UHGV virus genome: UHGV-0123675
Reading direction: 5' to 3' (one strand)
Origin: a virus
Length of the DNA: 42,627 nucleotides
Shown here one piece after another: positions 18,051-42,627 of this stretch (its first letter is position 1; each line of letters starts with the position of its first letter). Position numbers and translations under genes: made by a program. The notes beneath the pieces were generated by a model. It was not told the origin of the DNA, searched no databases, and was given only the letters and a program-made list of their open reading frames with translations.

Positions 18051-18053
18051 GCC

Positions 18054-20383: not shown

Positions 20384-20391
20384 GGTCTTCC

Positions 20392-23962: not shown

Positions 23963-23964
23963 CG

Positions 23965-23988: not shown

Positions 23989-24035
23989 TCCCTGAAGGCG
24001 GCGCTGGTCGCCTTTTCCTTTTATGGAGAAAAAAC

Positions 24036-24371
24036 ATGGCGAATAACTATCAGCAGGACGGTACCACACTGGATTATCACAATGCGGGTGTTGATGCCGT
24101 TTCATCCGGTGCGCTGGTGGCGGTCGGCGGAATTGCCGGGGTGGCACACAGCGATATTCCAGCAGGCGAGTGGGGAACACTGCATATGGCCGGTGTTTTT
24201 GTGCTGCCTAAAGCGGCAGAAGAAATTGCGGCAGGCCAGAAGCTGTATCTGGCTGGCGGCAAGCTGACGGTGGCAAAAGGCGATGATGCAACGCCAAACC
24301 CGGTTGTTGGTTCCGCCTGGGGAGCAGCTGAGGCGGATGCTGCTGATGTTGCCGTCCGCCTGGGGTTCTGA
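24036..24371 (+). CDS. Small head-associated protein (DUF2190/decoration-like, tentative)
   Basis: 111-aa ORF with GGAG RBS directly after capsid gene terminator; Gly/Ala-rich. Confidence 0.45.
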   Translation: MANNYQQDGTTLDYHNAGVDAVSSGALVAVGGIAGVAHSDIPAGEWGTLHMAGVFVLPKAAEEIAAGQKLYLAGGKLTVAKGDDATPNPVVGSAWGAAEADAADVAVRLGF

Positions 24372-24727
24372 TGAGCCGGTTCCGGGAGCGTTTGGCTAAA
24401 GCAGATGCCCGGATTAACCGGGCGTTTGCCGAAGAAGTCCCTGCATGCCTGCAAACGGGTGAAGGCCCGCGTCTGGTGACCGTGATTTTTGAATCACCGG
24501 ATGCGCTGTCGGGTGTACCGGGGGGCGGGGAAATTCAGAACCATTCCCCGGCGTTCAGTGCAATGACTGCGGATATTTCCGGTCTCGAAAAACATGACGG
24601 TGTGGTTATCAATACTATCCCTTACCGGGTGACACATATCGGCGCGGATGAAGAAGGGCGGACCCGCGTCACGCTGGCATATGGGGAACCCGGCAAAACA
24701 CAGCCTCAGATCGATAAATGGAGCTGA
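24371..24727 (+). CDS. Putative head-tail connector / head completion protein
   Basis: 118-aa ORF in head-to-tail junction position; start overlaps upstream stop. Confidence 0.45.
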   Translation: MSRFRERLAKADARINRAFAEEVPACLQTGEGPRLVTVIFESPDALSGVPGGGEIQNHSPAFSAMTADISGLEKHDGVVINTIPYRVTHIGADEEGRTRVTLAYGEPGKTQPQIDKWS

Positions 24728-24728
24728 T

Positions 24729-25385
24729 ATGGCGCGGGAGTCTCGACTGCGGCGGGATTTACCCGTCGATATTGATGTGGATGTTATCTGGCGAATTGCG
24801 GACAGTATCGGTGCGACGCAAAAACAGTTCCGTGCAGCATACTCGCGCGCGCTCAGGCGTACTGCCGCCACGCTGCGAAAGAAAGCGATGGCGGATCTGA
24901 AAGACGGGCTGGCCCCACGCAGTATGGATCTGGTCCGGCGCCGTCTGCTGTCTTTTCGCCTGGACAGGGGATCGCAACTGGATAACTTCCGGCTCTGGTT
25001 CGGGCTGAATGCCATTAAGGTGAAAGACCTTAAAGGACGAATCAACGGGCGGCTGCGACCGCACCATACCCGGCGTGACCGCAACACGGGGCGTTTTATT
25101 AAAGCGCGCCGCCAGGCAGAAAACGCCGGATTTTCCCCGAAAGGTAATCTGCTGAGCGAACGGTCGTTTGAAAACGGGGAGGTGTCCCGTTCAAAACGGG
25201 ATAATCGCCGGACGGTGGTTATTCGCGATCCCCAGACCCGCCGGACACGCGAAGCAGAAATGGATATCTACGAACCGATGCTGAACTACATCGAAGACAA
25301 CGCATTTGCGGAAGCGATGGAGATTTTTATGCATCACTTTGAAACCGACATTCGCGGGCGCGTAAAAGCCCGTATTTCTGTCTGA
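24729..25385 (+). CDS. Putative neck / tail completion protein (Arg-rich, 218 aa)
   Basis: ORF between head and tail modules; function from position only. Confidence 0.4.
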   Translation: MARESRLRRDLPVDIDVDVIWRIADSIGATQKQFRAAYSRALRRTAATLRKKAMADLKDGLAPRSMDLVRRRLLSFRLDRGSQLDNFRLWFGLNAIKVKDLKGRINGRLRPHHTRRDRNTGRFIKARRQAENAGFSPKGNLLSERSFENGEVSRSKRDNRRTVVIRDPQTRRTREAEMDIYEPMLNYIEDNAFAEAMEIFMHHFETDIRGRVKARISV

Positions 25386-25951: not shown

Positions 25952-26561
25952 TATCGCAGGCGACCTGCAGCGCAGACTGGCGAACCTTGTCCGGCGCGGC
26001 GTTATCCACTCCGTCAGGCACGATCGCATCCCAAAATGCCGGGTGGATTTGGGGGATATCATCACGACCTGGCTGCCGTTGTGCCAGGGCTTTTCCGGAA
26101 CTAACCGCGCTGATTCAAATCCTTATGCCGTGGGGGATGCGGTTACGGTCCTGTCCGAAGCCGGAGAGCTCAACAACGGACGGGTGTTTCCCGGCTGGAA
26201 CACGGGAAAGCTGCCAGTGCCGGAAGGAAGTGACAGCGAGCACATTACCCGTTACAGCGACGGGACCGAGATCCGTTATGACAGGAACGCGCATGCCCTG
26301 ACGATTACGCTGGCTGATGGTGGAACTTACAAAATTGTCGGTAAAGGCACGCTGGATGGTCCGGTTGAAATTACCGATACCCTGACAGTTCATGGCAAAA
26401 CCCAGATTAATGCCGACACGTCGGTTGCAGGGAATATCGGGGCGTCAAAGGAGATAACGGATAAATCCGGCAGCATGAGCAAGATACGTGAAGTCTTTAA
26501 CAACCACGATCACCGCGGCGACAGCGGCGGGCTCACCGATAAACCTAATCAGAAAATGTGA
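25944..26561 (+). CDS. Baseplate spike protein (P2 gpV-like)
   Basis: C-terminus HNHDHRGDSGGLTDKPN parallels P2 gpV HTHKHPGDSGGTTGSP; start ATG 25944 overlaps upstream stop. Confidence 0.7.
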   Translation: MSDIAGDLQRRLANLVRRGVIHSVRHDRIPKCRVDLGDIITTWLPLCQGFSGTNRADSNPYAVGDAVTVLSEAGELNNGRVFPGWNTGKLPVPEGSDSEHITRYSDGTEIRYDRNAHALTITLADGGTYKIVGKGTLDGPVEITDTLTVHGKTQINADTSVAGNIGASKEITDKSGSMSKIREVFNNHDHRGDSGGLTDKPNQKM

Positions 26562-26582
26562 CCTGCTGCGGCAGGTTTTTTT
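26562..26582 (+). terminator. Hairpin plus T-run (terminator/attenuator-like) upstream of sheath gene
   Basis: CCTGC-tgcg-GCAGG followed by TTTTTTT then GGAG-A-rich-ATG. Confidence 0.45.
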
Positions 26583-26599
26583 ATGCCTGGAGAAAAAAC

Positions 26600-28069
26600 A
26601 TGTCTCAGTTACATGGCGTTGAAACTATTGAACTCACCTCGGGTACGGTGGCGGTTACCACGATTCAGACCGCCATTATCGGCCTGGTGGGAACTGCACC
26701 TGATGCGTCGGGGGGAACAGCCGCATCGGGATCATCCGGTACACCCATTCTAGATAACGTTATCGACTTCACGGCAACCATTAAGGGGCGGGAAGGCAAT
26801 GTCATCAATGTCGCTGCGCTGGCCGGACAGCCGGCAGCCGAAAATCCTGCTGCGGTTGTGACGTCAGCAAGCTGGGATCCTGAATCGCTGACACTGAACA
26901 TCACGCTGGGTTGTGATGAGCACGGTGTTATCACGGCTAAACCTGGAGAAGTTGCTGAGGCTGTCGGTGGTGTTGATGGCGTAAAAATCAGTGCGAGCGG
27001 GCGCGGTGACGGGATTGTCCAGCCCTTCAGCCTGCAATTAGCGGGGGGTGAAGATGAACCCTTTCCACTCAATACGCCGGTGGCGGTCATCGGCACCACG
27101 CTGTTATCCCGCCTGGGTGAAAAAGGTACGCTTAAACAGGCACTGACTGATATTAACGATCAGCGTAATGCGCTGACGGTGGTGGTGCGTGTGGCGGATG
27201 AAAACGATGTGGCAAAACGACGCGCGGCGGTACTGAAGGGGATTGGCACCCTGTCATCAGCGAAATCTGTTACGACGTACCAGCCGCGTATTGTGATTGC
27301 GCCGGAATTCAGTGAGGACGATGCGGTTGGTAAGGGGCTGGAAACCGTGGCCGGGAAATTGCGCGCCGTTGCCTATGTTGACTGCGCCTCCGGTGCGACG
27401 CTGCAGGAAGTGGTACAGCGTCGCCAGTCCTATGGCGCACGAACTGAACTGTTGCGCCCGCGGGTCCAGGCGAGTGATGCAGATGGCCAGCTGGTTTATC
27501 GCCCTTACTCTGCATTTGCTGCCGGATTACGCGCCCGCATCGACTTTGAAAAAGGCTGGTGGTGGAGCAAGTCGAACCAGAACATCAATAACATCCTCGG
27601 TGTTGAGCAGATCGATGAATTTATCCTCGGGGATGAGAACTGCGATGCAAACCTGCTCAACATGCAGAACGTGTCCACCATTATCCGCCGGGCGGGTTTT
27701 AAACACTGGGGGAACCGCCTGTGTGCAACCAATCCTCAGTGGCGTTTTGAATCTGTACGCCGTACAGCTGATGTTATTGAGGACAGCATTCAGGAAACCA
27801 TGCTGGAGTATGTTGACCGCCCACTGGACCGGGAAAATGCGGATGACATTATCGGTACCATCAATGCCTATATGCGGCAACTGGTCGGTCTTGGCGCCAT
27901 ATTCGGTGGGCGGGCCTGGCTGGATGAAGAACTGAACACCGCGGAAACCATGGCGTCGGGTGTCCTGTACATCAACTATGACTTTGGTCCGAAATCGCCG
28001 ACTGAACTTATCAGCCTGCGCGTCCGGGTGAACAATAACTATGCGCTTGAGGAGATGCTTGCAGCATGA
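26600..28069 (+). CDS. Contractile tail sheath protein (P2 FI-like)
   Basis: ~490-aa protein followed directly by FII-like tube gene; start ATG 26600 after GGAGAAAAAAC. Confidence 0.85.
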   Translation: MSQLHGVETIELTSGTVAVTTIQTAIIGLVGTAPDASGGTAASGSSGTPILDNVIDFTATIKGREGNVINVAALAGQPAAENPAAVVTSASWDPESLTLNITLGCDEHGVITAKPGEVAEAVGGVDGVKISASGRGDGIVQPFSLQLAGGEDEPFPLNTPVAVIGTTLLSRLGEKGTLKQALTDINDQRNALTVVVRVADENDVAKRRAAVLKGIGTLSSAKSVTTYQPRIVIAPEFSEDDAVGKGLETVAGKLRAVAYVDCASGATLQEVVQRRQSYGARTELLRPRVQASDADGQLVYRPYSAFAAGLRARIDFEKGWWWSKSNQNINNILGVEQIDEFILGDENCDANLLNMQNVSTIIRRAGFKHWGNRLCATNPQWRFESVRRTADVIEDSIQETMLEYVDRPLDRENADDIIGTINAYMRQLVGLGAIFGGRAWLDEELNTAETMASGVLYINYDFGPKSPTELISLRVRVNNNYALEEMLAA

Positions 28070-28572
28070 GCGATAAAAACACACTACGCGTCTGGACCTT
28101 CTTCCGGCAGGGGATCCGTATTCAGGGGGCGCATGAATTTACGCCGCCGTCTCTGGCTATTGTTAAAACGGATTTGCGTACCGGCGCACAGGATGCGCCA
28201 ACTCCGGTTGATGACGGCATGGAAGCACTGACCTGTCAGGTTAAATTTTATGGGATAGATACGGATATGCTGGCCAGCTTTGGTTTTGTCAGCGGCAGTC
28301 GTTCACGCTTTACGGCTTATCAGGGCTATCTCGGTAACGGCACTGCGCGCGGTACGGTTGAGGAAATCGAGGGGTTTGTACAGACCGTCACGCCGGATGC
28401 GCGCAGTAAGGACACGCTTTCCGAAAATGCCGTGACGGTTGATATTGCCGTCAGCTACTACCGTCAGTCACTGGACGGGCGCGAACTGTTTGCCATCGAC
28501 ACAGAGCGTTTCGCCCGCCGGGTGAATGGCGTTGATGTGCTTTCTGGCCTGGCTGCCAAAGTGCGTCTCTGA
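28066..28572 (+). CDS. Tail tube protein (P2 FII-like)
   Basis: C-terminus YYRQSLDGRELFAIDTERFARRVNGVDVL parallels P2 FII YFRLTMDGKELVEIDTINMIEKVNGVDRL. Confidence 0.85.
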   Translation: MSDKNTLRVWTFFRQGIRIQGAHEFTPPSLAIVKTDLRTGAQDAPTPVDDGMEALTCQVKFYGIDTDMLASFGFVSGSRSRFTAYQGYLGNGTARGTVEEIEGFVQTVTPDARSKDTLSENAVTVDIAVSYYRQSLDGRELFAIDTERFARRVNGVDVLSGLAAKVRL

Positions 28573-28596
28573 TTTTACTGTTATCCCACCACTGTA

Positions 28597-28619
28597 ACGG
28601 CCTGCGGGCCGTTTTTTTA
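28597..28619 (+). terminator. Hairpin plus T-run after tail tube gene
   Basis: ACGGCC-tgcg-GGCCGT followed by TTTTTTTAT. Confidence 0.5.
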
Positions 28620-28630
28620 TGGAGCATCCT

Positions 28631-28930
28631 ATGAGCTTTCCTGGTGAAACCCGCGTTATAAAACTGTATTCCCCCGTATCACTTGATAGCGGGGTTGTGA
28701 TCGATGAAGTCACCATGCGTGAACCGCTGGTTCGCGATCGCATCACTCATGCCAAAGACCGCGGCAACGAAGAAGAGAAAGAAGCCCGCATGATTGCGCT
28801 GCTGTGCAATCTCAGTGAACAGGATCTCTGGCTGATGACGGCGGCAGATTATTCACAGCTGCTGGATGCCTTTAACGTTTTTATGCTCCCGCCCGCGAAG
28901 CGACCGAAGGCGGGCTCCTCCGGGCAATAA
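28631..28930 (+). CDS. Tail assembly chaperone (P2 gpE-like)
   Basis: ~100-aa ORF between tube and tape measure; start ATG 28631 after GGAG (ORF track starts at 28619). Confidence 0.65.
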   Translation: MSFPGETRVIKLYSPVSLDSGVVIDEVTMREPLVRDRITHAKDRGNEEEKEARMIALLCNLSEQDLWLMTAADYSQLLDAFNVFMLPPAKRPKAGSSGQ

Positions 28931-29058
28931 GATTTCTGGGGCGGCGGCTGCATTTTCCGATGGCGGAATACCTTGATATGCCGTTCAGCACTTTCTCTGA
29001 TTTTTTGACTGACGAACTGGAGACGATAAACCGTGGGCGGAATAAGCCAGAACCTTAA
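28631..29058 (+). other. Predicted -1 programmed frameshift product of the tail chaperone (E+E'-like), slip at the T-run near 28878-28884
   Basis: The -1 frame is open from 28876 to a TAA at 29056-29058 and opens exactly at the GTTTTTA run inside the chaperone gene; extension has no start codon of its own. Confidence 0.45.
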
Positions 29059-30958
29059 GGCCGTGATTACCTTTGGCGGGAACCTGGATAATTCATGGAA
29101 ACGATCTGCAGATGGTCTGCAAAAAAGCCTGAAAGATGTCGGAAAGCAGTCTGAACGACTGACAAAAGACCAGACCAGACTGGCAGCAGAAATCAAACGC
29201 GCCAAACTGGCCGGTGAAAGCCTGGGGGATTTGAAGCGCCGCTATACCGATGTTTCCAGGGAAATCCGCAAAACGGAGGCGGAGCAGCAGAAACTGAATG
29301 TACAGATGCAAAAAGCACAGCGCATTCAGGCATTCAAAGGAGCCGGTAAAGGTCTGTTCCGGCGCGGTCTGGGGATCGCCGGGCAGGTGGGCGGGATGTT
29401 TGGATCCGGGTTGGCTATTGGCGGTGGCGGTGTGGTGGCTTCAGCTCTTGGCACACTGATAGCGCCAGCTGCCACCAATGCTGAAACGGCAACCCGCACT
29501 AATGTCGCAAAAAGTTACGGCGTGGACGTGGCCACGTTTAATGCCTGGGATTCTCTGGCGAAGCAGTACGACATGAATGCGGAAAACATTGGCGATCTCT
29601 TTGAAGAGTATCTGCACAAATCCGGAGAGTATAAACAGAACGGTAAGCAGGGCTCGCTGCAGGATGCGTTTGAAACGCTCGGGTTCAAAGCGGGGGATTT
29701 TGCCGGGCTCAACGATATGGCGCAGTTCGACAAAATTGTTGAACGGGCGCTCAGCCTTCAGGACGAGTCAAAAGCCTCCTTCGCACTGGATTCTCTTTTT
29801 GGCGGGGAAGCGAGCAAACTGCTGATGCTTATCAAGCAGTCTGGCCGGAGCTACCGCGACCTGATGGACGAACAGCGGCGCTACAACCTTGTGACCAAAG
29901 AGGGGGCAGATGGGGCGGTTGCAGGGAATCAGGCTATCAATAATCTCCGCACTGTTTTCTCTTCTGCGGTTGCTGAAATTTCCGGGCAACTGGGAAATGA
30001 GCTTGCGCCTGATATCCGTAATCTGACGAATGATCTTGCCGACTGGTTCAAAGGTGGCGGGATCAAACGCATTGTGACTTTCCTGCGAAACGACCTTTAT
30101 CCCGGCGTTCTGTCGTTCGGGCAGGGGGTGGTTTTTGTCGGCAAAATTATTTACGCGCTGGCTAAAAAACTGTCCTGGTTGCTGCCGGATGAACGAAATG
30201 ATCAGCGCGATGTACTGAAAACACTGGCTGGTAATGGAATGAATATGGCTCGCCTCCGAGCTGAGCAGACAGGCCAGGGAGAATGGTTTACGCAGCAACT
30301 GGCAATTCATCCTGACTTGCCAGAAAAAGTAAAAGAGTCATGGAATGATACCCGCGGATGGTTCGGTCCTGACAGCGACGATGAGGCGTTTAACAAATCG
30401 CTTGATAAATACCTGTCACCGGAAGGCGGCGATTCGCTTTTAAACTGGAATGCGGCGCTACAGCAAAACAAGGACCATGTAGCGCAAACCGTTAAAGAGG
30501 ACCCGGAAAGCAGTGCCGAAGCCAGGGATAATTACGCGCATGAGCCGGTAACGTTTGCCAGTCAGTGGAAAAGAGAGCCATCAGGGCTGACGGACAGCCT
30601 GGGGGAAGGAGAAAGCGCCCGCGCAGGGGATAAGTATCCGAATGATCTCCTTCTTCCCGTCGTGCAGCAGGACAGGAATGTTACGACAACAAACAGATCA
30701 CCTGCTGAGCCGGTCATTTTGAAAGACGAGAGCACGGGTGGTTACTGGGAAAGCCTGCTTCAAAAAATGGATGTACTGGATAAGCAGCCGCCATCACGGC
30801 AGATAACTGATAACCGCAAATTTGAATACCACTTCGAAATTAATGCTGCGCCGGGACAGGATGAGAAAGCCATTGCCGATGAAGTGACCACGGTGACGAA
30901 AAACAATTCTGCTTTTAATGGTGATAACAGCCTTCTGGATGGGGGACTTGTCTGGTGA
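29033..30958 (+). CDS. Tail tape measure protein
   Basis: 641-aa Gly/Ala-rich, coiled-coil-prone protein after chaperone gene; GTG start. Confidence 0.85.
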   Translation: MGGISQNLKAVITFGGNLDNSWKRSADGLQKSLKDVGKQSERLTKDQTRLAAEIKRAKLAGESLGDLKRRYTDVSREIRKTEAEQQKLNVQMQKAQRIQAFKGAGKGLFRRGLGIAGQVGGMFGSGLAIGGGGVVASALGTLIAPAATNAETATRTNVAKSYGVDVATFNAWDSLAKQYDMNAENIGDLFEEYLHKSGEYKQNGKQGSLQDAFETLGFKAGDFAGLNDMAQFDKIVERALSLQDESKASFALDSLFGGEASKLLMLIKQSGRSYRDLMDEQRRYNLVTKEGADGAVAGNQAINNLRTVFSSAVAEISGQLGNELAPDIRNLTNDLADWFKGGGIKRIVTFLRNDLYPGVLSFGQGVVFVGKIIYALAKKLSWLLPDERNDQRDVLKTLAGNGMNMARLRAEQTGQGEWFTQQLAIHPDLPEKVKESWNDTRGWFGPDSDDEAFNKSLDKYLSPEGGDSLLNWNAALQQNKDHVAQTVKEDPESSAEARDNYAHEPVTFASQWKREPSGLTDSLGEGESARAGDKYPNDLLLPVVQQDRNVTTTNRSPAEPVILKDESTGGYWESLLQKMDVLDKQPPSRQITDNRKFEYHFEINAAPGQDEKAIADEVTTVTKNNSAFNGDNSLLDGGLVW

Positions 30959-31425
30959 GTGAAATTATCCCGATATTTGAAGATTCCGGCCAGCGCAGTG
31001 CAGGCGCATTACGGGGTGGGCAGGAAGCCCGCGTCATGATGATGCTGGGGAATTTCGCCTTTTCGATTGATACAGCGGCTTATCATCAGCTCACCCGTGA
31101 GGCCAGCTGGCGCTGGAGTGAACAGGAACGCATCGGCAAACAGGACCTTCTTCAGTACACCGGAAAGCCCGGGCGTACTGTCAGGCTCGAAGGGCAGTCT
31201 CACGCCTTTTTCCGTAAAGGGGTGGAAGGGGTGAATGATTTATTTGATCTTGCCGAACAGGCGAAACCGCAGCAGCTTGTCAGCGGAGAGGGCGATGTAC
31301 TGGGGTGGTGGGTGGTGACCGACTTTTCAGACACGACGAGTAAGTTTTTACCGGGTGGTGGTCACCGAAATAAAAACTGGACGATGACGCTAAAACACTA
31401 TGCCGACGATCTATCAAACCCGTGA
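30955..31425 (+). CDS. Tail protein (P2 gpU-like)
   Basis: Internal MMMLGNFAFS... resembles P2 gpU N-terminus (MMMLG); true start may be ATG 31036. Confidence 0.7.
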   Translation: MSEIIPIFEDSGQRSAGALRGGQEARVMMMLGNFAFSIDTAAYHQLTREASWRWSEQERIGKQDLLQYTGKPGRTVRLEGQSHAFFRKGVEGVNDLFDLAEQAKPQQLVSGEGDVLGWWVVTDFSDTTSKFLPGGGHRNKNWTMTLKHYADDLSNP

Positions 31426-31615
31426 CGGAGATGTACTGGATGCAATTTGTGCCGTGCATTACGGTACTGAAAATCTTTCAGACTCAGTGACTCAGGTTCT
31501 TGAAGCCAATCAGGGGCTGGCGGATAAGGGGGCTATGTATCCTTCCGGCCTGTATATCACACTGCCGGATCTGGTGACGCCTGTAGCGGAATCGCCATTC
31601 AGTTTATGGGATTGA
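31400..31615 (+). CDS. Tail protein X (P2 gpX-like, LysM-like)
   Basis: GDVLDAICAVHYG...VLEANQGLA resembles P2 gpX GDTLDAICVRYYG...VLAANPGLA. Confidence 0.75.
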   Translation: MPTIYQTRDGDVLDAICAVHYGTENLSDSVTQVLEANQGLADKGAMYPSGLYITLPDLVTPVAESPFSLWD

Positions 31616-31616
31616 T

Positions 31617-32735
31617 ATGGCAGATCAGACAGCGATGCCGGAATATGCTCCGGCTTTCAGCATTCAGGCCGAAGGGAAAGATATAACCCGGGTGCTGCAA
31701 CAATGCCTGAGTGAACTGACCCTGACGGATTATGGTGGGGCAACAGCGAAAGCCGATGAACTGAAAATCAGCCTCATCTCTGAAACGCTGGCGCTTCCCA
31801 CTAAAGGTGCCCGGCTTCGGGTTGCTCTGGGATTCAATGACCAACTGATCGATAAAGGCTGGTTTGTTGTCAGTGGTGTCTCGAGCAGCGGCCCGCCGAG
31901 GCGTATTGAGCTTTATGCGACCGCCGCGCCGATGAACGCCCAGAAACAACCCGGAGATGTGACAAGCCAGAAAACCCGGAGCTGGGATAACCTTCGCCTT
32001 GCCGATATTGTCAAAACAGTGGCCACCGATAACGGACTTATTCCCCGCGTGGCCGACGCGCTCAAAGATATTCATATCAATCACATCGATCAGGTGGCGG
32101 AATCCGATGCCAACCTGCTCGCAAGGCTTGCACGTGACTACAACGCAGTGAGCAAACCATCGGGAGGCTACTGGCTTTTTTTACAGCAGGGGGCCACGGC
32201 AACGGCTTCAGGAAAACAGACTGGCGGGATCACCATCACACCGGATGAAGTATCAAACTGGTCCTACAGTGAAGGTGAGCGGGGGAGTTCGACGGGGAAA
32301 GCTGCGGGGAGCGGAGGTAAAGCCAAAGAGAAAATCGGCGTGCGTTATTACGACGAGGAGGACGGCACGACAAAGACCTCCTCTGTTGAACATGATGGCC
32401 CGGCGATGACCAATCCCTATACCCAGTCGGAGAAAAACACCGCCGAGCAACAGGCAAACTCCAGGAAAACACAGGCGAAGCGTAACGAGCAGAAAATGAC
32501 GCTCACGGGGCCATGTCGCCCTAAACATGTTCCGCTGACAGCAGAAGCAGGTGTGTCGACTTCCGGTTTTGGTTCCCGTGAGGATCGGGCCTGGGTGGTT
32601 GAGTCTCTGGTCTTTTCTCTGACGTCAGCAGGATTCAGCTACACCTACAACCTTGTCGTGGATATTCGTAAACCCGCAGCGGCTTCGAAAAAATCAGAAA
32701 AGCAGGACAAAAAAGGCCCGTCCTACTTCGGTTAA
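31617..32735 (+). CDS. Tail protein D (P2 gpD-like late control/baseplate hub protein)
   Basis: 372-aa protein following U and X genes, size and position of gpD. Confidence 0.75.
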   Translation: MADQTAMPEYAPAFSIQAEGKDITRVLQQCLSELTLTDYGGATAKADELKISLISETLALPTKGARLRVALGFNDQLIDKGWFVVSGVSSSGPPRRIELYATAAPMNAQKQPGDVTSQKTRSWDNLRLADIVKTVATDNGLIPRVADALKDIHINHIDQVAESDANLLARLARDYNAVSKPSGGYWLFLQQGATATASGKQTGGITITPDEVSNWSYSEGERGSSTGKAAGSGGKAKEKIGVRYYDEEDGTTKTSSVEHDGPAMTNPYTQSEKNTAEQQANSRKTQAKRNEQKMTLTGPCRPKHVPLTAEAGVSTSGFGSREDRAWVVESLVFSLTSAGFSYTYNLVVDIRKPAAASKKSEKQDKKGPSYFG

Positions 32736-32774
32736 CCCTCCCGCCATCCGGCGACTCAGCAACGGAATTTAATC

Positions 32775-33128
32775 ATGAACGGTGTAAACAACCGGACCGG
32801 AAAACGCCTGTCCGGCGTCGCCCATTTGCGGCAGTCCGTCAGCGACATACTGACCACTCCCATCGGGAGCCGGGTTCTTGTTCGGGACTATGGCAGTGAT
32901 CTGTTTTCGCTGGTGGATAACCCCCGGGATGATTTGACCCGACTACAAATAATCGCTGCGTCTGCGACCGCACTGGCCCGGTGGGAGACGCGGCTGAAGG
33001 TAACACGTGTGCTTGTTTCCTTTCCTGAAGGGGAGTCCGGCTGTGTGCTGGATATCGAGGGGATCAACAAGGAAACCAATTTACCTGTCAGAACGGGAGA
33101 CATAACGATTTATGGCAAGCAGCTATGA
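32775..33128 (+). CDS. Baseplate assembly protein W (gp25/gpW-like)
   Basis: 117-aa protein with DILTTPIGSRVLVRDYGSDLFSLVDNP motif characteristic of gpW/gp25 family. Confidence 0.8.
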   Translation: MNGVNNRTGKRLSGVAHLRQSVSDILTTPIGSRVLVRDYGSDLFSLVDNPRDDLTRLQIIAASATALARWETRLKVTRVLVSFPEGESGCVLDIEGINKETNLPVRTGDITIYGKQL

Positions 33129-34032
33129 CGTGATCAACCTGTCCGAACTGGACGTACCGGATGCCATTGTGGTGCCTGATGCAACTGAAATCTTCACCCG
33201 GTGGCTGGTGCGGCTGAGGGAACTTGATAAGCAGTTTGATGCGCTGGTGGAATCCGATCCGACGTTTAAACAGGGGGAGGTGAATGCCTACCAGCTGACG
33301 CTGGCGTTTCAGCGGGTTAATGATGCCGTGCGGGCGGTATTTCTCGCGAGTGCAAAAGAGGCTGACCTTGACCAGATAGGTGCCGCATTCAACGTTAAAC
33401 GGCAGGTTATTAAGCCCGGAGATCCGCTTGCCATTCCGCCAGTGGAGCCTGAACTGGAAGACGATGCGGCATTTCGTGAACGTATCCAGCTTTCATGGGC
33501 GCAGCTGAATACAGCAGGCGCGCGCAACTCATACCGCTTTCATGCGAAGTCTGCCGATACGGATGTGCTGGATGCCGATGCCTATGGGCCGGAAACCCAT
33601 AACCGGCCCGGCTACGTTGATGTCTATGTCCTGTCACGTACCGGGGATGGGGCGGCGGGGCAGCCCCTGCTTGATAAGGTTAACAGCACACTGAATGCGG
33701 ATGAAATCCGCCCGTTAACGGACTACGTGACGGTTAAAAGTGCCACGATTGCAAACTATGCCGTTACGGCAGAGCTGGAGATCCCGGAAGGACCAGACGC
33801 CAGTACGGTGCTGAATAATGCCATCGATGTTTTACGGTCATACACCACGCTTTCCCATCGGATTAAAACCGTCGTCCCGTTATCCGCCATTTATGCCGCG
33901 CTGCAGCAATCCGGTGTGGTCCGGGTAAGGCTGATTTCTCCGGTAGCAGATCTGGAAGCGGAACCGGGTAAAGCGCCCTGGTGTACCGCCATTAATGTCA
34001 CCCGCAGGGAGGTAAGCAGCAATGACGGCTAA
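33112..34032 (+). CDS. Baseplate assembly protein J (P2 gpJ-like)
   Basis: 306-aa protein; RVNDAVRAV, DVYVLSR, LSAIYAALQ segments parallel P2 gpJ. Confidence 0.85.
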   Translation: MASSYDVINLSELDVPDAIVVPDATEIFTRWLVRLRELDKQFDALVESDPTFKQGEVNAYQLTLAFQRVNDAVRAVFLASAKEADLDQIGAAFNVKRQVIKPGDPLAIPPVEPELEDDAAFRERIQLSWAQLNTAGARNSYRFHAKSADTDVLDADAYGPETHNRPGYVDVYVLSRTGDGAAGQPLLDKVNSTLNADEIRPLTDYVTVKSATIANYAVTAELEIPEGPDASTVLNNAIDVLRSYTTLSHRIKTVVPLSAIYAALQQSGVVRVRLISPVADLEAEPGKAPWCTAINVTRREVSSNDG

Positions 34033-34585
34033 GTTTCGATCTCTGCTACCTCCTGGTGCATTTCATGAAGAGCGGGCGCAGGAGCAGGCCAGCGCTGAGC
34101 AGATCGCCACCCTCGATACCAATATGGTGCGCAAGTCCAAAAATCCTGACACCTGTCCGGCACATCTTCTCCCCTGGCTGGCCTGGGAGCATGCCGTTGA
34201 TTTCTGGGATGACGGCTGGACGGAGGCGCAAAAGCGACAGGTGATAAAGGATGCCGCTTATGTTCATCAGCACAGGGGAACGGCCGGGGCGGTACGCCGT
34301 TCTCTCGGGTCAGTGAACCTGCCCACGATCGTGGTTGAGTGGTGGGAAGACACCCCGCGCGCTGAACCTTACACCTTCCGGATCGAAGTACAGAGCAGTG
34401 AGGGGGTCAGTGACGCTCTCTATCATCAGATCCGCCAGCTTACCGAGCGGGCCAAGAACCTGCGCAGCTATCTGAGCAAAATCGATGTGATGGCGAATGT
34501 GGGTATGGACGGGGCTTTTTATATTTCGGGTGCGACAACAGCGCATATCGATGTGGACATTTTTGCCGGGGAATCTCATGGCTGA
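34022..34585 (+). CDS. Baseplate/tail protein I (P2 gpI-like)
   Basis: NPDTCPAHLLPWLAWEHAVDFWDDGWTEAQKRQVIKDA parallels P2 gpI NPDTCPANLLPWLAWAFSVDRWDEKWPEATKRAVIRDA. Confidence 0.8.
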   Translation: MTAKFRSLLPPGAFHEERAQEQASAEQIATLDTNMVRKSKNPDTCPAHLLPWLAWEHAVDFWDDGWTEAQKRQVIKDAAYVHQHRGTAGAVRRSLGSVNLPTIVVEWWEDTPRAEPYTFRIEVQSSEGVSDALYHQIRQLTERAKNLRSYLSKIDVMANVGMDGAFYISGATTAHIDVDIFAGESHG

Positions 34586-36350
34586 TTACTACTCAATTAT
34601 CACTAACCGGGGTAAAGAACTGGAGGCGGAGGCGCTTGCCAGTGGTCGCCTGATTGTACTGACTCACTTTGTGGTGGGTGACAGTAGTGGCAAGCAGGTC
34701 AAACCTGATCCGTCGCAAATCCGGTTAATCAATGAAACGTACCGGGGAGATATCGCTGAGCTGGTGGTGTCCCCGGAGCAGTCCACACAGTTAATGGCAA
34801 AAATCGTCCTGCCGACCGGGGTTGGTGGATTCACCGTTCGCGAAGTCGGTTTAATGACTGACGCCGGAGAGCTTTACGCGGTGGCAAACTGCCCATCGAT
34901 CGATAAGCCGGTTGGTGGTGTCAGCGTTAATATGCAGTTTCGCCTGGCAGTATCAGATACCTCAAATATCACGCTGAATGTTGCAACCGGCGACGGGTTA
35001 TTTCTGCGTATTGACCAGTACCTGAAAGAGATAAAAGCGCGGGGCGCGGAAGCACAAAAAACATCGCGTGAATCCATTGGTGTCCTCGATAGCACAACAC
35101 AACAAAGAGGGCTGGTTCAACTTAGCAGTTCGGTGAACAGCACCAGTGAAACGCAGGCCGCCACCCCGGCAGCAGTTAAGATCGCAATGGATAATGCGAA
35201 TGCGCGACTGGCTAAAGACCGGAACGGCAGTGATATTCCTAATGTCGCATTATTTCTACAAAACCTTGGCCTGGTAGAAACGATAAATCGAGCAGCCGGT
35301 TCGCTGCAAAAAAATCAGAACGGCGCTGATGTACCGCAACCGGATTCGTTTGTACGTAATATCGGTGCCGGGCGAGCTTTCAGTGGCTCAGTCAGTATTG
35401 GTGGAGGCGGTAACTGGACAACAGCGGACTTTATCGTCTGGCTTGAAAATCAGGGGGCATTTAATCATCCCTATTGGGTATGCAAAGGTTCATGGTCCTA
35501 CGGTGATAACAGGGTTATTACGGATACGGGATGCGGGAATATCAGTCTTGCTGGCTCGGTAGTTGAGGTTATGGGAGTGCGTGATGCGATGACTATTCGT
35601 ATCACCACGCCAACCACCACAGCAGGAAATGGAACGCCTTCCGCTCAGTTTACCTACATCAATCATGGTGATGGTTACTTGCCAGGCTGGCACAGGGATT
35701 TTAATACAGCAAATCCTCCTTATGAGTATTACCCCGTAGGCGCACCCATACCATGGCCTTCGGATATACCGCCTGCTAACCATGCGCTTATGCAGGGCCA
35801 ATCGTTTGATAAATCTGCCTATCCATTACTTGCTGTGGCATATCCTGTGGGGGTTATTCCTGATATGCGTGGTCAGACGATAAAAGGCAACCCAACAGGT
35901 AGAGGGGTATTAACACAAGAACAGGATGGTATTAAGTGGCACGATCACGGCGCAACGATCGCAAGTACCGATCTTGGAAGCAGGGATACAACCGGGTTTG
36001 ATTATGGCACCAAATCGGTATCAGTTTTTGACTACGGTACTAAATCAACAACCGGCGCGGGGGCTCACAATCACCCTATATCCGGGAGAACGCAGTTTGG
36101 TCAGGCAGGGGATGTCGTTGCAATGTCCAATACTGGCTCTGACAGAACAAACTGGGGAGCTGTTGGTGGCGTTGGCGACCATGCTCACGCCGTAGGAATT
36201 GGTGCACATGATCACGTGGTGGGTATTGGAGCGCATGCTCACTCTGTTTACATTGGCGCGCACAGCCATGGTGTGACGGTTTCACCATCTGGTCAGGCTG
36301 AAAACACTGTAAAAAATACGGCATTTAATTATTTAGTGAGGCTTGCATAA
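34578..36350 (+). CDS. Tail fibre protein (P2 gpH-like N-terminus; His-rich GxGAHxH repeats at C-terminal tip)
   Basis: GLVQLSSSVNSTSETQAATPAAVK matches the conserved gpH motif; start ATG 34578 overlaps gpI stop (ORF track starts 34497). Confidence 0.85.
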   Translation: MADYYSIITNRGKELEAEALASGRLIVLTHFVVGDSSGKQVKPDPSQIRLINETYRGDIAELVVSPEQSTQLMAKIVLPTGVGGFTVREVGLMTDAGELYAVANCPSIDKPVGGVSVNMQFRLAVSDTSNITLNVATGDGLFLRIDQYLKEIKARGAEAQKTSRESIGVLDSTTQQRGLVQLSSSVNSTSETQAATPAAVKIAMDNANARLAKDRNGSDIPNVALFLQNLGLVETINRAAGSLQKNQNGADVPQPDSFVRNIGAGRAFSGSVSIGGGGNWTTADFIVWLENQGAFNHPYWVCKGSWSYGDNRVITDTGCGNISLAGSVVEVMGVRDAMTIRITTPTTTAGNGTPSAQFTYINHGDGYLPGWHRDFNTANPPYEYYPVGAPIPWPSDIPPANHALMQGQSFDKSAYPLLAVAYPVGVIPDMRGQTIKGNPTGRGVLTQEQDGIKWHDHGATIASTDLGSRDTTGFDYGTKSVSVFDYGTKSTTGAGAHNHPISGRTQFGQAGDVVAMSNTGSDRTNWGAVGGVGDHAHAVGIGAHDHVVGIGAHAHSVYIGAHSHGVTVSPSGQAENTVKNTAFNYLVRLA

Positions 36351-36934
36351 TGGCTTTTAAAATGACCGATACCAACCGCGTTATTACTATTTACAACCTT
36401 TCATCAGCAACGAATGAGTTTATCGGTAAGGGGGATGGGTTTATTCCGGCTAATACAGGCTTACCTGCGTATAGTACTGATATAGCACCGCCAAAAGTGA
36501 AGGCGGGGTTCGTTGCTGTTTTCGATATTCAGACCAATAAGTGGTCGCAAGTAGAAGACCACCGGGGAGAGACCGTTTATGACATCAGCACAGGTAGACC
36601 CACTGTTATTGAGACGCTGGGGTCCCTGCCTGATAATGTTGTATCAGTGGCTCCCGAAGGAGGATATGTTAAATGGGACGGCACACAATGGGTTCATGAT
36701 GCAGAAGCGGAAAAAGCATTTTTTCAGGGACAGGCTGCGCAGGAAAAAGCAAACCTGTTGATGATTGCAACATCTGCTATTGCTCCTCTCCAGGATGCAG
36801 TTGATCTGGACATTGCGACGGAAGACGAATCGAAAGCACTTCTTGCATGGAAAAAGTATCGTGTAATGCTTAACCGAATTAACCCCGAAGATGCTCAAAA
36901 CATCATCTGGCCTGAATCTCCATTGCCCATATAA
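36350..36934 (+). CDS. Tail fibre assembly protein (Tfa chaperone)
   Basis: 194-aa protein directly after fibre gene with conserved C-terminal IAPLQDAVDLDIATEDE...WKKYRVMLNRI tfa signature. Confidence 0.85.
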   Translation: MAFKMTDTNRVITIYNLSSATNEFIGKGDGFIPANTGLPAYSTDIAPPKVKAGFVAVFDIQTNKWSQVEDHRGETVYDISTGRPTVIETLGSLPDNVVSVAPEGGYVKWDGTQWVHDAEAEKAFFQGQAAQEKANLLMIATSAIAPLQDAVDLDIATEDESKALLAWKKYRVMLNRINPEDAQNIIWPESPLPI

Positions 36935-36998: not shown

Positions 36999-37856
36999 TT
37001 ATTTACCTATAAGAGAGACCTTTAATCTTCTTAATAAAGTAATTACATCTTTCCTTCCGAATAGTTTAAACAGATTAAACCAGCGGTTCTTACCCAGGTA
37101 ATTTAGTTTTATTAATTTAGGGTTGTAATGATAGCACATTATAAAAAAACCCTGATCGTCATCAACTATATTATTTCTGAGTGTTTTTATTTGGCACTGA
37201 CAAACCAGTTTGTAAAACTCTTTCCATTTCTTTTGTGTTGCTACAATTGCCCCACCAATAATATAGGAACGATTGTTAATCATGTGGTCAAAAACCTGAT
37301 GGATAGTTTTGACGGCCAAGCCTTTTTTAACTGTAAAGAAATTTACTTTGTTGCGGTCAAATGGATAGTCCCATCGAGATAACCCTCTGGTTACGTCTGC
37401 ACTGCGACAGTAACCAAAGTCAACCCATGCAACCATATCATCATTCACAAGATTTAACTCTATAGCTCTGTTTACAAAATATGTTTTCAGATTGCAAACC
37501 AGTGCATAGTCTGGGGACCAGTATTCGGGGTTTATCAACTGGCGAGTTTCAAGTTTGCTTATGAACTCGTTATCTTTTTGAATCCGCGCAATTATTTTTT
37601 TGATGTGTTGAAATTTTTTATTAATATCTAAAGCCACTACAACAGTATTTTTCCCATTTCTGATTGCTTCAATTTTTGGTTTAAGTTCACTGGATGTGAA
37701 AATGACCATGTCATTATCCAATTCAGACAGATTTTCAAAGTACTGAATATAGGTATCAGCTGTTCTCTCTAAGTGAGGAGAGAAACCTTTATTACTCGTC
37801 CAGTCTCCTCGTCCTATATCGAAAAATGCTGTAACAATGGTAATAGATGAGTTCAT
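36999..37856 (-). CDS. HtrL/YibB-family-like protein (285 aa; tentative), AT-rich cargo gene
   Basis: N-terminus SITIVTAFFDIGRGDW resembles the conserved start of HtrL/YibB-family proteins; AT-rich, minus strand downstream of tail fibre genes. Confidence 0.5.
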   Translation of the reverse strand: MNSSITIVTAFFDIGRGDWTSNKGFSPHLERTADTYIQYFENLSELDNDMVIFTSSELKPKIEAIRNGKNTVVVALDINKKFQHIKKIIARIQKDNEFISKLETRQLINPEYWSPDYALVCNLKTYFVNRAIELNLVNDDMVAWVDFGYCRSADVTRGLSRWDYPFDRNKVNFFTVKKGLAVKTIHQVFDHMINNRSYIIGGAIVATQKKWKEFYKLVCQCQIKTLRNNIVDDDQGFFIMCYHYNPKLIKLNYLGKNRWFNLFKLFGRKDVITLLRRLKVSLIGK

Positions 37857-38342
37857 TTTTAAGCAATCCGTGTTTTATACCTATCCAATAACTACAAGAA
37901 TGTTGAATACATATTTTTTTTGATATCAGTCATATGGAAACATTCTATCAGTATCAACATGAGGCGGGAAGCATCATGTGATATTAAAACTTATAAGCAA
38001 CGGATGTACAAAATAACTGGTTGTGGCAAGGGATTATTTAATGGTGAATAATTTTCATTGGTATTATTTTTCTTGAAATTGTCGCTTTGTTCTAAGATAG
38101 GATAACAATAGGTTGCTGAATCATATCAAGCAGTGTTCCTTTGCCGATATTTTGAGTAATAACGGAAATCATTAAAGATGACCTGACTGGCCAATTGATG
38201 GTGAACCGTAACGAGAGTTGCCGCAACCACACCGTATGCAAGAGCATGATTGCGGCCGACTGGCGAACGTTCGATAGTGCGAGTATTGAATGATTGCCAG
38301 TCACGGCGGATTGTACTTAAGCAATATGACGGTTCAAGGCGT

Positions 38343-38585
38343 TTAATCTGAAACCAGCCACATTTCAGCCTCTTCAAACATTTCCTGAACAGTTCGGCTT
38401 ATCTGTTCCTTCTCATGCTTGCTGGCGTCAGTGTTGATCGCCGGCAGTGTCATCATCGGTTTAACCCGGACATCAGCATCGGGGAAGATCCGGTGAACCC
38501 TCTTGGTCAGTTCGCCCAAAATGATATCTTTTGCACCGGGCAGACCATCAAAATTCCTTTTGTCATAAACGAGTTCCACGAACAT
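38343..38585 (-). CDS. dinI: DinI-family DNA-damage-inducible protein
   Basis: 80-aa protein; ELTKRVHRIFPDADVRV ... EQISRTVQEMFEEAEMWLVSD parallels E. coli DinI (ELSRRIQYAFPD ... QRISEILQETWESADDWFVSE). Confidence 0.85.
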   Translation of the reverse strand: MFVELVYDKRNFDGLPGAKDIILGELTKRVHRIFPDADVRVKPMMTLPAINTDASKHEKEQISRTVQEMFEEAEMWLVSD

Positions 38586-38600
38586 TGATTATTGCTCCTT

Positions 38601-38620
38601 TACTGGATGGATATACAGTA
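38601..38620. promoter_or_regulatory. LexA-box-like operator (SOS box) between divergent dinI-like and UmuD'-like operons
   Basis: TACTGGATGGATATACAGTA matches the consensus TACTGTATATATATACAGTA at 17 of 20 positions (CTG-N10-CAG spacing), overlapping a second palindrome ACAGTAT..ATACTGT and a TATACT -10-like hexamer. Confidence 0.6.
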
Positions 38621-38659
38621 TTTATACTGTGTTTTTATCCGGTGTTCAAGAGGGGTTAA

Positions 38660-38902
38660 ATGATGCCACGACGTAGCGATATTGAAATAGCCTGGTATGC
38701 TTCGATACAGCAAGAACCGAATGGCCGGAAGACTGTCACCACACAGCGATTTGTCCAGGAACTGAGCAAGGTTAACTGGAACTGGACGATGAAGCAGGCC
38801 AACGAATGGATCGAGTGGTATGTGACAACATTCCGCGATGTATCAACGCAGGAAGGCGAGAACCGTACTTTTCAGTTGTTCAATCCAAACGGAGGACTGT
38901 AG
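38660..38902 (+). CDS. Hypothetical protein (80 aa) co-operonic with UmuD'-like gene
   Basis: ORF with AGAGGGG RBS; stop 2 nt before the UmuD'-like start. Confidence 0.45.
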   Translation: MMPRRSDIEIAWYASIQQEPNGRKTVTTQRFVQELSKVNWNWTMKQANEWIEWYVTTFRDVSTQEGENRTFQLFNPNGGL

Positions 38903-38904
38903 CC

Positions 38905-39294
38905 ATGGGCTTTCCTTCACCTGCCAGTGATTACGTTGAAAAAAGGATTTCGCTCGATCAGCAGCTTATAAGCCAGCCATCAGCAACTTATTTCATGCGG
39001 GCATCACGTTCACATTTCAGGGAAGGAATACTACAGGGGGCGCTGCTTGTTGTGGATGCGTCACTTACTGCCTGTGATGGCTCATTGCTGATATGTGTAA
39101 TTGACGGGGAATTCAGGATCAAGAGATATCGAAAGCATCCTCAACCCCACCTAATTAATCTGGAGAACGGGAGAAGGGAGGCGCTGCCAGCAGATGATGA
39201 CGGTTACAGTTCTGCACCCGCTATATTCGGGGTGATCACGTACATCATTAATGATGCCAGGAACGCGGAGTTTGATGACTGCCCGGTGATGTGA
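38905..39294 (+). CDS. UmuD'-like protein (S24 peptidase fold, lacks the N-terminal propeptide; HumD-like)
   Basis: GFPSPASDYVEKRISLDQQLISQPSATYF ... DGEF.IK parallels E. coli UmuD residues 25 onward ([29 protein letters not shown]); start ATG 38905 with GGAGGA RBS falls exactly at the UmuD autocleavage site; the longer ORF from 38806 overlaps the upstream gene. Confidence 0.8.
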   Translation: MGFPSPASDYVEKRISLDQQLISQPSATYFMRASRSHFREGILQGALLVVDASLTACDGSLLICVIDGEFRIKRYRKHPQPHLINLENGRREALPADDDGYSSAPAIFGVITYIINDARNAEFDDCPVM

Positions 39295-40823: not shown

Positions 40824-41918
40824 TCAGTCATTAAGGTACTTAGTATTCCCTTCACAAAATCCACAGCCAACCAGTCCACTCATTTCACTAACTGATGTAG
40901 AGCTTCCACCACAGTAGCCGCAAGTACTGATTGAATCATGAAAAACAAGGCAGTTCGTGCACAGATATCCACCTCCGTACTCACATACCGTCTCATAGCC
41001 GTCACAATCGGAACAACTTGCTGGAAGGCCTGAATAACTAATATCTTCTGGTTTGCCGACCCATTCATCCAGCAAATCGTATCTGGATGATGAGTAATTG
41101 CAGTTGTTGCAATTGAAATTCGTTTCACCGGTAGCGTTCAGATCCTGCCTTACTCCGCAACTAGGGCATGTAACTTCGACATAAGGATCAGATCTGCAGC
41201 CGCAGACTAAGCAATTTGCTTCGTGAAGAGTATTTCCTCTCTCCTCATTGATGGATATATCAACGGCAGCATTTTTACTGCAAGCACGACAGTTTGAGAT
41301 CGTGCATCCCTGTTTTCTGAGATCATCGAGTGTAGGCTGTAAATAACGAAATTTTGCATTAGCATAAAACAACGAACTTTCGAGCATACGATCCTCATCT
41401 GATGCCAACTTTGAGTTTAGAGGTTCTCCAAAAAGATAGAACCACTGATCACGCATAAAACGGTTAAGCGCAAACCAAGCGTCAGCCTGTTCATCAAGGA
41501 TTGTCTTCACCTGAGTGTCGGTAAAGTCGGAATGATAAAAATGAACCACACGGTTGCGGTGGTCTTTAACTTTTTTGAATACAGCGATGGTTTCTTTCGG
41601 TAGGGGATTTTGAAGTACATCACCTAACCGCTGACAGGTTTCATCGTATGTGACCGACTGGAAATCACCGGCAAGGTATTTTGCGCGCTCAATTTTCCTC
41701 CCGGAGCACACCAGACTCCAGTGTTCGTGTACTAGCGGCACTTTCAGCATGATCTCTACCGCGGTCCAGAAACTGACAATCGAAAATTTTGGCTTGGAAG
41801 CCTCTAGTTCTTCGCGTGCCTTATCTAGAAACTCCAGACCGTTGTTGATCAGAGCTTGAACGTCTTTAGATACAAACGATTCGTCATTGTACTGGAAGCT
41901 GTATTTTTTATTTTTCAT
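40824..41918 (-). CDS. Hypothetical protein (364 aa) with HEPN-like RNxxxH motif and Cys-rich (multi-CxxC) C-terminal region
   Basis: N-terminal helical region contains KDHRNRVVHFYH (R-N-x3-H); C-terminal ~150 aa contains at least ten CxxC/CxC pairs suggestive of several zinc ribbons. Confidence 0.55.
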   Translation of the reverse strand: MKNKKYSFQYNDESFVSKDVQALINNGLEFLDKAREELEASKPKFSIVSFWTAVEIMLKVPLVHEHWSLVCSGRKIERAKYLAGDFQSVTYDETCQRLGDVLQNPLPKETIAVFKKVKDHRNRVVHFYHSDFTDTQVKTILDEQADAWFALNRFMRDQWFYLFGEPLNSKLASDEDRMLESSLFYANAKFRYLQPTLDDLRKQGCTISNCRACSKNAAVDISINEERGNTLHEANCLVCGCRSDPYVEVTCPSCGVRQDLNATGETNFNCNNCNYSSSRYDLLDEWVGKPEDISYSGLPASCSDCDGYETVCEYGGGYLCTNCLVFHDSISTCGYCGGSSTSVSEMSGLVGCGFCEGNTKYLND

Positions 41919-42409
41919 GGCTATATAACCTGTTTATTCATCCGGTACCCATTGTAAATGCCCTACTTAAACGGAGCACTAATTTTTAGAAATCTTCCAG
42001 CTGGCTGATTATATCTTGGACTAGCCCCATTTGACTAATACACCTGTGTGCTGCGTCCATCAGTTGAACTCACAGCTCCTAGCGGACATTCGCAACATTA
42101 AATTCTTCACCATTTAGATTGTCTAATAGTGATAACCTTTTGAATAATCAAGAGTGACAATATTAAATTATTGGCGAAAAGATGATGTAACGTATTGATA
42201 AAGCATGATAACACGCATGATTTAAAATCCCTTTATCGTGAAAGGGCTGATAGGTACAGGCACTTGTTTTTGCCCTATATAACGGTTATCAAAATCCAAA
42301 AACACACATTGATAATCAATCGGTTAGGGGAATGCTGCAAACTAGTTGATTTACAATAAAATTATAGAATTATTTTTATTTATCATGTGGTTGTATATGA
42401 AGCATCTAA

Positions 42410-42577
42410 CTACTGCTGCGCCACATGGGTTGGGTCGAAGCGGCTGACCTGATCGTTAAAGGTATGGAAGGCGCGATCAACGCCAAGACCGTAACCTATG
42501 ACTTCGAACGTCTGATGGATGGCGCTAAACTGCTGAAATGTTCAGAGTTTGGTGACGCGATCATCGAAAACATGTAA
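42410..42577 (+). pseudogene. icd: 3' fragment of isocitrate dehydrogenase gene (icd), attachment-site duplicate
   Basis: Translation [54 protein letters not shown]-stop matches the Icd C-terminus; an in-frame TAA lies immediately upstream and the preceding DNA is unrelated AT-rich sequence. Confidence 0.8.
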
Positions 42578-42599
42578 TCCAGATTCTGGGTTGTGTGAG

Positions 42600-42627
42600 A
42601 ACGGGAGCCGAGAGGTTCCCGTTTTTT
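42600..42627 (+). terminator. Rho-independent terminator downstream of the icd 3' end
   Basis: AACGGGA-gccgagaggt-TCCCGTT followed by TTTTT. Confidence 0.6.

Follow-up and report, generated by a model that had tools for sequence, protein, structure and literature searches.

The window, by which we mean the whole stretch of 42,627 nt analysed here (UHGV virus genome UHGV-0123675), most likely represents an e14-type temperate prophage integrated at icd, the isocitrate dehydrogenase gene, in a Citrobacter chromosome, and the icd fragment at its right end most likely represents the displaced chromosomal icd 3' end at attR; we put the probability of this reading at roughly 0.93. An e14-like integration into icd with an attR scar had been proposed in a first-pass annotation of the sequence, and this proposal was supported by an intact icd to the left, a direct repeat, orthologues of IntE and XisE and a junction nucleotide identical to that of e14. 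Judged from its sequence, the integrated element of ~42.7 kb looks intact and has a myovirus-type late region. Integration at icd has long been known for e14, for phage 21 and for the lambda-like NC-SV and similar phages, the 3' end being supplied by the phage and an icdC-type pseudogene being left at attR (PMC6379469, PMC13626634, PMC12803456).

The icd fragment and its terminator

The features at the right end of the window are the following:

41919–42413, no strand: P arm of the prophage att site, AT-rich and non-coding (GC 31–37%), ending in CATCTAACTAC at the junction; conserved in E. coli
42414–42577, + strand: icd' pseudogene at attR, comprising the final ~165 bp of the isocitrate dehydrogenase gene with its TAA stop (translation, K-12 icd match, start nucleotide as in K-12 icdC)
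42597–42627, + strand: predicted intrinsic terminator of icd, chromosomal type, its 13-pair hairpin closed by a GAGA loop and its T-run cut by the window end (fold, relatives)

The presence of an icd 3' fragment at this end was borne out by an icd frame that is open from 42410 to 42577, with the translation stopping at TAA (42575–42577), and by a match to E. coli K-12 icd of 94.5% identity over 165 nt (E = 7e-69), in which window 42414–42578 aligns with the 3' end of the K-12 gene (L012 1711–1875). The fragment had been described as the last 168 bp of icd. That length holds for the open frame, but homology to icd begins only at 42414, 4 nt inside the frame, which leaves the canonical ~165 bp of e14 icdC; translation gives 55 residues from 42410 and (L) + 53 residues from 42414. 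The four preceding nucleotides, CTAC (42410–42413), belong to the phage arm, native icd having ATGA there (native ATGATGCTG versus CTACTGCTG in the window). The first nucleotide of the icd homology is identical to that in e14 (K-12 icdC), and the junction, CATCTAACTA followed by (A/C)TGCTGCGCC, agrees with K-12 icdC, CATCTAACTA being found in e14 attR as well.

As had been noted from the sequence alone, the fragment is preceded by in-frame stops (TGA at 42398–42400 and TAA at 42407–42409) and by AT-rich, non-coding DNA that ends in ...GAAGCATCTAACTAC and is unrelated to icd. The GC content is 31–37% over 42050–42424 versus 50% in the icd' fragment, with the jump at the junction. The fragment is not part of a full-length icd, as the sequence upstream of it, which lies within the window, is phage DNA. 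We place the right boundary of the prophage at 42413/42414, and the ORF of 50–55 codons at the end of the window reads as a pseudogene of the icdC type and not as a true gene. For annotation, this sets the right boundary of the prophage, its target site and the e14-type specificity of its integrase, and flags the terminal ORF as a pseudogene.

A terminator downstream of the fragment had also been claimed, and the claim is supported by the 13-pair hairpin (42597–42626), which runs into T6 and is clipped by the end of the window. The whole 50 nt fold with -24.5 kcal/mol (z = -4.8), and 0/200 shuffled sequences were equally stable. The same element, a GC-rich hairpin and U-tract after the stop codon, stands behind the intact icd in three other loci (L002, L029, and L031) and is a predicted terminator. 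A consensus terminator scan of the window did not list it, probably because its T-run is clipped by the window end, and an Rfam scan of the whole window at the gathering threshold found no family. The 3'UTR of the window reads ...GTTGTGTGAGAACGGGAGCC-GAGA-GGTTCCCGTTTTTT, and that of the icd-linked copy at attL ...GTTGAATGAGAACGGGAGCC-ATTT-GGTTCCCGTTATTATTATTAGG, the attL type being marked by the loop ATTT and TTATTATTATTA.

The left end, the integrase and the crossover

The left flank lies outside the window; its sequence was taken from public contigs that match the ends of the window rather than from the record of the window itself. Contigs extending leftwards were found by the exact protein sequence of the first ORF (50–868). 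The following features of the left end, and those paired with it, are referred to below:

1–49, no strand: putative inner end of the P' arm (L004 alignment)
50–1604, + strand: two cargo ORFs of 272 aa (50–868) and 244 aa (870–1604), between attL and int and co-oriented with icd (phrog_13337 and phrog_8999, unknown function)
1610–2740, - strand: lambda-family tyrosine integrase of 376 aa, IntE orthologue, open frame reaching 2806 (Pfam Arm-DNA-bind_1 1.4e-36, Phage_integrase 1.4e-17)
2721–2966, - strand: excisionase, XisE orthologue (Pfam Exc 3.1e-12; 85% amino acid identity to XisE over the full length)
42284–42294, + strand: GGTTATCAAAA, candidate arm-type integrase site, 130 bp left of the core (exact motif copies)
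42414–42423, + strand: putative crossover core TGCTGCGCCA, where the attP/attB homology starts on the left (overlap of shared runs in related lysogens)
42414–42623, + strand: direct repeat of 210 bp that recurs at attL at the end of the intact icd (L004 5684–5893; 95.7% identity, 9 mismatches, no gaps)

A 464-kb metagenome scaffold (L004) is 100% identical to window 1–6868, and three further contigs (L005–L007) are 99.5% identical. In all four, the usual neighbours purB, hflD, mnmA, nudJ and rluE precede, in this order, an intact icd of 416 aa (Iso_dh), followed by a spacer of 153 bp, the 272-aa ORF, the 244-aa ORF, int, and xis. The intact icd that had been predicted left of position 1 is thus present in L004, with its 416 codons ending 104 bp left of the window (L004 5952 = window 1). 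The integrase shares 86% amino acid identity with IntE of e14 over the full length and 59% with Int of phage 21. The proposal that the int at the left end of the window is the icd-proximal int agrees with the IntE orthologue and xis lying near the intact icd in L004. Three P' arm-type motifs and the phage-borne icd' copy are located 3–268 bp left of window position 1 (motifs at L004 5914–5948), and the window appears from this alignment to lack about 270 bp of the left att region.

The 210-bp repeat consists of ~165 bp of icd coding sequence and 45 bp of 3'UTR including the hairpin. Two slightly different icd 3' copies had been anticipated, and the 9 mismatches over 210 bp agree with this. The allele markers that distinguish the attL and attR copies lie at 42478, 42529, 42544, and 42594–42613. 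The coding differences amount to 3/165 and are all synonymous, and both icd copies therefore encode the same C-terminus. The homology includes the terminator and extends beyond the 165 coding bp.

The alignment of the two copies had been suggested as a means of defining the crossover core. It did bound the crossover, but in the window's own genome only to 64 bp (42414–42477), over which the attL and attR copies show no difference. Shorter identical runs from the start of the homology were obtained from related lysogens: 11 bp in K-12 (ATGCTGCGCCA) and 16 bp in E. coli PCP07014 (TGTTACGCCATATGGG), a complete chromosome carrying the same prophage type between icd and iraM. Beyond the 16-bp run, the attL copy of PCP07014 is Citrobacter-like and the attR copy E. 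coli-like. The two runs overlap in TGYTRCGCCA, 10 nt corresponding to window 42414–42423, and we infer that the exact crossover point lies at this TGCTGCGCCA. In the classical scheme for e14 and phage 21, associated with Hill et al. (1989) and Wang et al. (1997), a phage that inserts within a gene carries the 3' end of that gene from the crossover onward. In reanalysed evolution experiments, excision of e14 is reported to turn icd into the icdC allele from codon 366 (PMC13626634). Codon 366 lies directly right of the putative core, and the conversion from this codon fits the classical logic of a phage-carried 3' end.

In the proposed model, attP would carry the last ~165 bp of icd together with the icd terminator hairpin, and the IntE orthologue would recombine attP with icd at the short core TGCTGCGCCA, at the 5' edge of the homology. 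After integration, attL would consist of the 5' part of host icd, the core, and the 3' end and terminator supplied by the phage, such that the icd at attL would stay intact with its C-terminus unchanged. The other junction, attR, would consist of the phage P arm, the core, and the pre-existing 3' end and terminator of the chromosomal icd, and would be what is found at 42414–42627. The attR fragment would be a promoterless pseudogene of the icdC type.

The P arm is ~91% conserved where it adjoins icd' in E. coli prophages at the e14 site, and in complete E. coli chromosomes the same P arm and icd' are followed by iraM-bluF, which is the e14 attR site. The motif GGTTATCAAAA occurs without mismatch at -130 in the window, in e14 (K-12), in E. 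coli Ecol_545 and in L008 (CP101082.1), and at -129 in L003. A triplet of the same motif is present in the P' arm, at +230/+241/+254 here versus +231/+242/+255 in e14. By analogy with lambda and phage 21, the GGTTATCAAAA motifs are putative Int arm-binding sites, and the arm-site consensus of phage 21, YYTTCCCCAAAA, was absent near either att end. When viral contigs were scanned for the P-arm/core junction, 5 were retrieved, whereas the P' arm gave no hit as an exact pattern. On one IMG/VR contig (L018, IMGVR_UViG_3300039322_000257), an e14-type P arm and an E. coli-type icd' are followed directly by three repeats of the CTTCCCCAAAA type, the phage 21 arm consensus, and two different icd-targeting prophages appear to stand in tandem there. 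The prophage studied here has an intact int, an intact xis and two intact att sites, and prophages nearly identical to it are found in hosts whose icd differs by ~4%; the element may still be competent for excision.

Chromosomal and phage-linked copies of the icd 3' end

The 3'UTR and terminator of the window were compared with attR fragments near other prophages, with unoccupied icd sites and with an intact icd. The unoccupied sites (L029–L031) have the full icd of 1251 nt followed directly by the terminator and an MFS-transporter flank, L029 and L031 being complete and the L030 locus truncated. No mismatch was found to the attR fragments of L003 (0/45) and L032 (0/49), the latter carrying yet another P-arm variant, and few were found to the unoccupied sites (2–3/49) and to the intact icd of C. 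pasteurii (L002, 2/45). The icd-linked, that is P'-linked, 3'UTR has 7–11/49 mismatches to the chromosomal references and is near-constant (0–1 differences) in five carriers of the prophage, a constancy which indicates that it travels with the P' arm of the phage. Based on these comparisons, the copy in the window has the chromosomal type of 3'UTR and terminator. The MFS-transporter flank was also seen in L003 and L026 (MFS/IclR in L026).

Compared with CP101082.1, the phage DNA of the window that ends at the core differs at 5 positions in 5684 bp, and the 214 bp that follow differ at 8, the first of them at 42436. Such a step in divergence at the core is expected if the DNA right of it belongs to two different host chromosomes. 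The 165 coding bp were tried as a test of which copy is native and were uninformative, the window and attL copies both being 5–10/165 from the alleles of unoccupied sites. The claim that the fragment is the displaced original 3' end of icd is thus upheld by the 3'UTR and the chromosomal linkage, but not for the coding parts, which are recombination mosaics.

The prophages of L004 and L005 differ at 8/3047 positions and the 5' regions of their host icd at 56/1289, and between their attL icd' copies there are 6/165 coding differences (last ~30 bp before the stop) and 0/45 in the 3'UTR. The phage-linked icd' has thus in part come to resemble host alleles, presumably because the repeats undergo homologous exchange, and either copy may have been altered in this way after integration. 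A further observation concerns CP101082.1, in which a derivative of the prophage with internal deletions is present twice in tandem at about 2.18–2.22 Mb (L025/L026/L008), the copies being 25.6 kb apart; the derivative is without the window regions of about 17479–24805, 26464–33764, and 34049–36426. At the internal junction of CP101082.1, the icd' is identical to the attR copy of that genome as far as the T-run, beyond which P' arm sequence follows; this suggests an unequal homologous exchange between icd' repeats. The same junction (right end, icd', left end; L008/CP101082.1) was considered as a direct read of attP and rejected, as it belongs to a tandem derivative, its icd' is identical to the attR copy of that genome, and it gives no clean information on the phage-borne allele.

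These data bear on the possibility that the fragment, though at attR, is a mosaic that arose when the 210-bp repeats exchanged sequence with each other or with incoming alleles, through RecA-dependent recombination or gene conversion, the duplication being kept as much by homologous recombination as by Int. We regard this as possible but rather doubtful. It would account for the identity of the two copies over their first 64 bp and for the low number of differing coding sites (3/165), for attL copies of 99.7%-identical prophages in different hosts that differ by 3.6% and track host divergence to ~30 bp before the stop, and for the tandem junction of CP101082.1, which is the product expected of unequal homologous exchange. 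It is, however, compatible with a site-specific origin, and the copies of PCP07014 and K-12 diverge right after a core of 10–16 bp, as after a clean Int event, while the 3'UTR of the window is cleanly chromosomal. On the broader role of the repeats, we tentatively propose, with the balance still somewhat against it, that the 210-bp icd' repeats are an active substrate for homologous exchange that rewrites the icd 3' end of the phage to resemble the allele of whichever host it occupies and occasionally makes tandem arrays, as in CP101082.1. Such exchange, if real, would explain both the host-level icd' differences among near-identical prophages and the Citrobacter-like phage copy carried by Citrobacter-derived phages even within E. 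coli.

Right of the fragment, the contigs that are 100% identical to the right end of the window (L013–L015) pass through the T-run into 134 bp and then end. These 134 bp match the left end of IS200C at 95–96% and are without P' arm DNA; since the contigs run into an IS200-like end, the DNA right of the fragment is not the P' arm of the prophage. The right host flank in the identical contigs was read only as far as this end. We consider it very improbable that the fragment is instead the phage-borne icd' copy; the window would in that case be a free phage genome, or a circularly permuted one, cut open at attP, or it would stop at an internal junction within a tandem lysogen. Free phage genomes such as phage 21 and many lambda-like coliphages do carry icd', and the CP101082.1 junction joins the same right end via icd' to the same left end; however, apart from the IS200-like continuation, the 3'UTR of the window is of the unoccupied-site type and differs from the P'-linked type, and the left end of the same strain abuts an intact icd. 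Just right of 42627, the IS200-like left end (GTGCACAGAAAACCCCCAGCTAGGCTGGGGG...; L013 1–134, reverse strand) directly adjoins the terminator T-run of icd, and it is probably the reason why short-read contigs and the window stop there. The same IS200 junction behind the icd' terminator was observed in E. coli Ecol_545 (L001) and in the IMG/VR contig L021.

It is likewise very improbable that icd' was left by an earlier prophage, or by some older rearrangement unrelated to the present prophage, which would then merely adjoin it: icd has been hit repeatedly, with an icd' beside a degraded siphovirus-like remnant in C. braakii ATCC 51113 and an e14-type prophage end followed by phage-21-type arm sites on one IMG/VR contig, but the junction agrees to the nucleotide with e14 attR, the adjoining P arm has been conserved along with integrases of the IntE type in both E. 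coli and Citrobacter, and the other prophage end abuts an intact icd at the matching point.

Cargo genes and relation to known icd-integrating elements

Cargo genes between int and att, as in e14, had been anticipated, and two ORFs were indeed found in the slot of ymfD/ymfE/lit. The 272-aa and 244-aa ORFs gave no match in Pfam, PADLOC, or NCBIfam. The 244-aa ORF has an N-terminal hydrophobic region; the protein that takes this slot in the PCP07014 prophage, annotated as 'putative phage abortive infection protein', is weakly similar to it, with 22% identity and E = 3e-6. In relatives, the slot between attL and int holds ymfD/ymfE/lit (e14), a DUF262 gene and a hypothetical gene (vB_EcoM-689R6), or an Abi-like gene (PCP07014). 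The 272-aa and 244-aa ORFs may be an uncharacterised two-gene defence or abortive-infection module. A weak promoter-like site precedes the two ORFs. In the attL copy of the terminator (L004 5870–5905), the hairpin is kept and the U-tract is interrupted (UUAUUAUUAUUA versus UUUUUU(U) at native sites), such that it might stop transcription less efficiently ahead of the co-oriented cargo ORFs. Read-through from icd into these ORFs, considered because of the broken U-tract UUAUUAUUAUUA, was unsupported, as the copy still qualifies as a terminator.

Cargo genes were also observed near the right end. A 364-aa gene beside attR (40824–41918, - strand; phrog_37794) matches the PADLOC candidate defence family HEC-08 over its full length (E = 4e-163), has an N-terminal DUF3644, and occupies the slot that holds mcrA in e14 and an HNH endonuclease in the Ecol_545 prophage. 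A moron-like cluster (36999–39294) comprises an HtrL/YibB-family gene (36999–37856, E = 9e-86), a DinI-family gene (about 38343–38585) and an S24 (UmuD/HumD-like) peptidase gene (38806–39294). The prophage thus adds uncharacterised cargo at both of its ends.

Of the known elements, e14 of K-12 (attL in icd, attR = icdC) has the same target, start of homology, ~165-bp icd' and GGTTATCAAAA layout as the prophage, as well as cargo between attL and int and a defence-type gene beside attR (mcrA in e14, the HEC-08 candidate here). However, e14 is a defective remnant of 15.2 kb in E. coli, whereas the prophage measures 42.7 kb, carries genes for terminase, portal, protease-capsid, sheath, and baseplate, and has a Citrobacter host, a Citrobacter-like phage-borne icd' and terminator, and unrelated cargo. 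As no Rfam family was found in the window, there is no sign of a C0293-like sRNA in it. Phage 21 and its relatives (4A7, ev207, and NC-SV) share the icd target (PMC12803456), and the attP of phage 21, according to the annotation of OL657228.1, has the same layout as that of the prophage, with an icd' pseudogene, a terminator, three tandem arm sites, and int. In contrast to the prophage, phage 21 is a siphovirus of lambda-type layout with int directly beside attP and without cargo, its Int is 59% identical, and its arm consensus is not found near the prophage att site. Based on integrase identity and arm sites, we would not assign the prophage to the phage 21 type, and those of its features that could be compared are as expected of the e14 type.

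Similar arrangements were seen in vB_EcoM-689R6 (ON470584.1) and in the prophages of PCP07014 and Ecol_545, which have the same order of icd, cargo, e14-type int, and xis. In Ecol_545 and PCP07014, a P arm ~90% identical to that of the window adjoins icd' at the e14 attR site. All three differ from the prophage in having an E. coli host and other cargo (DUF262, Abi-like, gtrABC, and HNH), and the nucleotide identity is ~87% in int and 83–91% in the att region. The late structural region of Citrobacter phage Chris1 (ON041214.1) is 94.4% identical over 72% of window 17500–42400; the Chris1 genome is not among the matches to icd', and its integration module probably differs from that of the prophage. 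The e14-type icd module, known mostly from a defective E. coli element, is extended by these results to an apparently complete myovirus-type prophage of Citrobacter, and the current understanding of the mechanism of icd integration is unchanged.

A degraded remnant was observed at the same target in C. braakii ATCC 51113 (L003 1–6310), with a truncated terminase, portal and tape-measure fragments, and a Lom/Ail-like outer membrane protein. It abuts an icd' that starts at the same nucleotide, with GGTTATCAAAA at -129, and its presence at icd indicates that this gene has been hit recurrently in Citrobacter.
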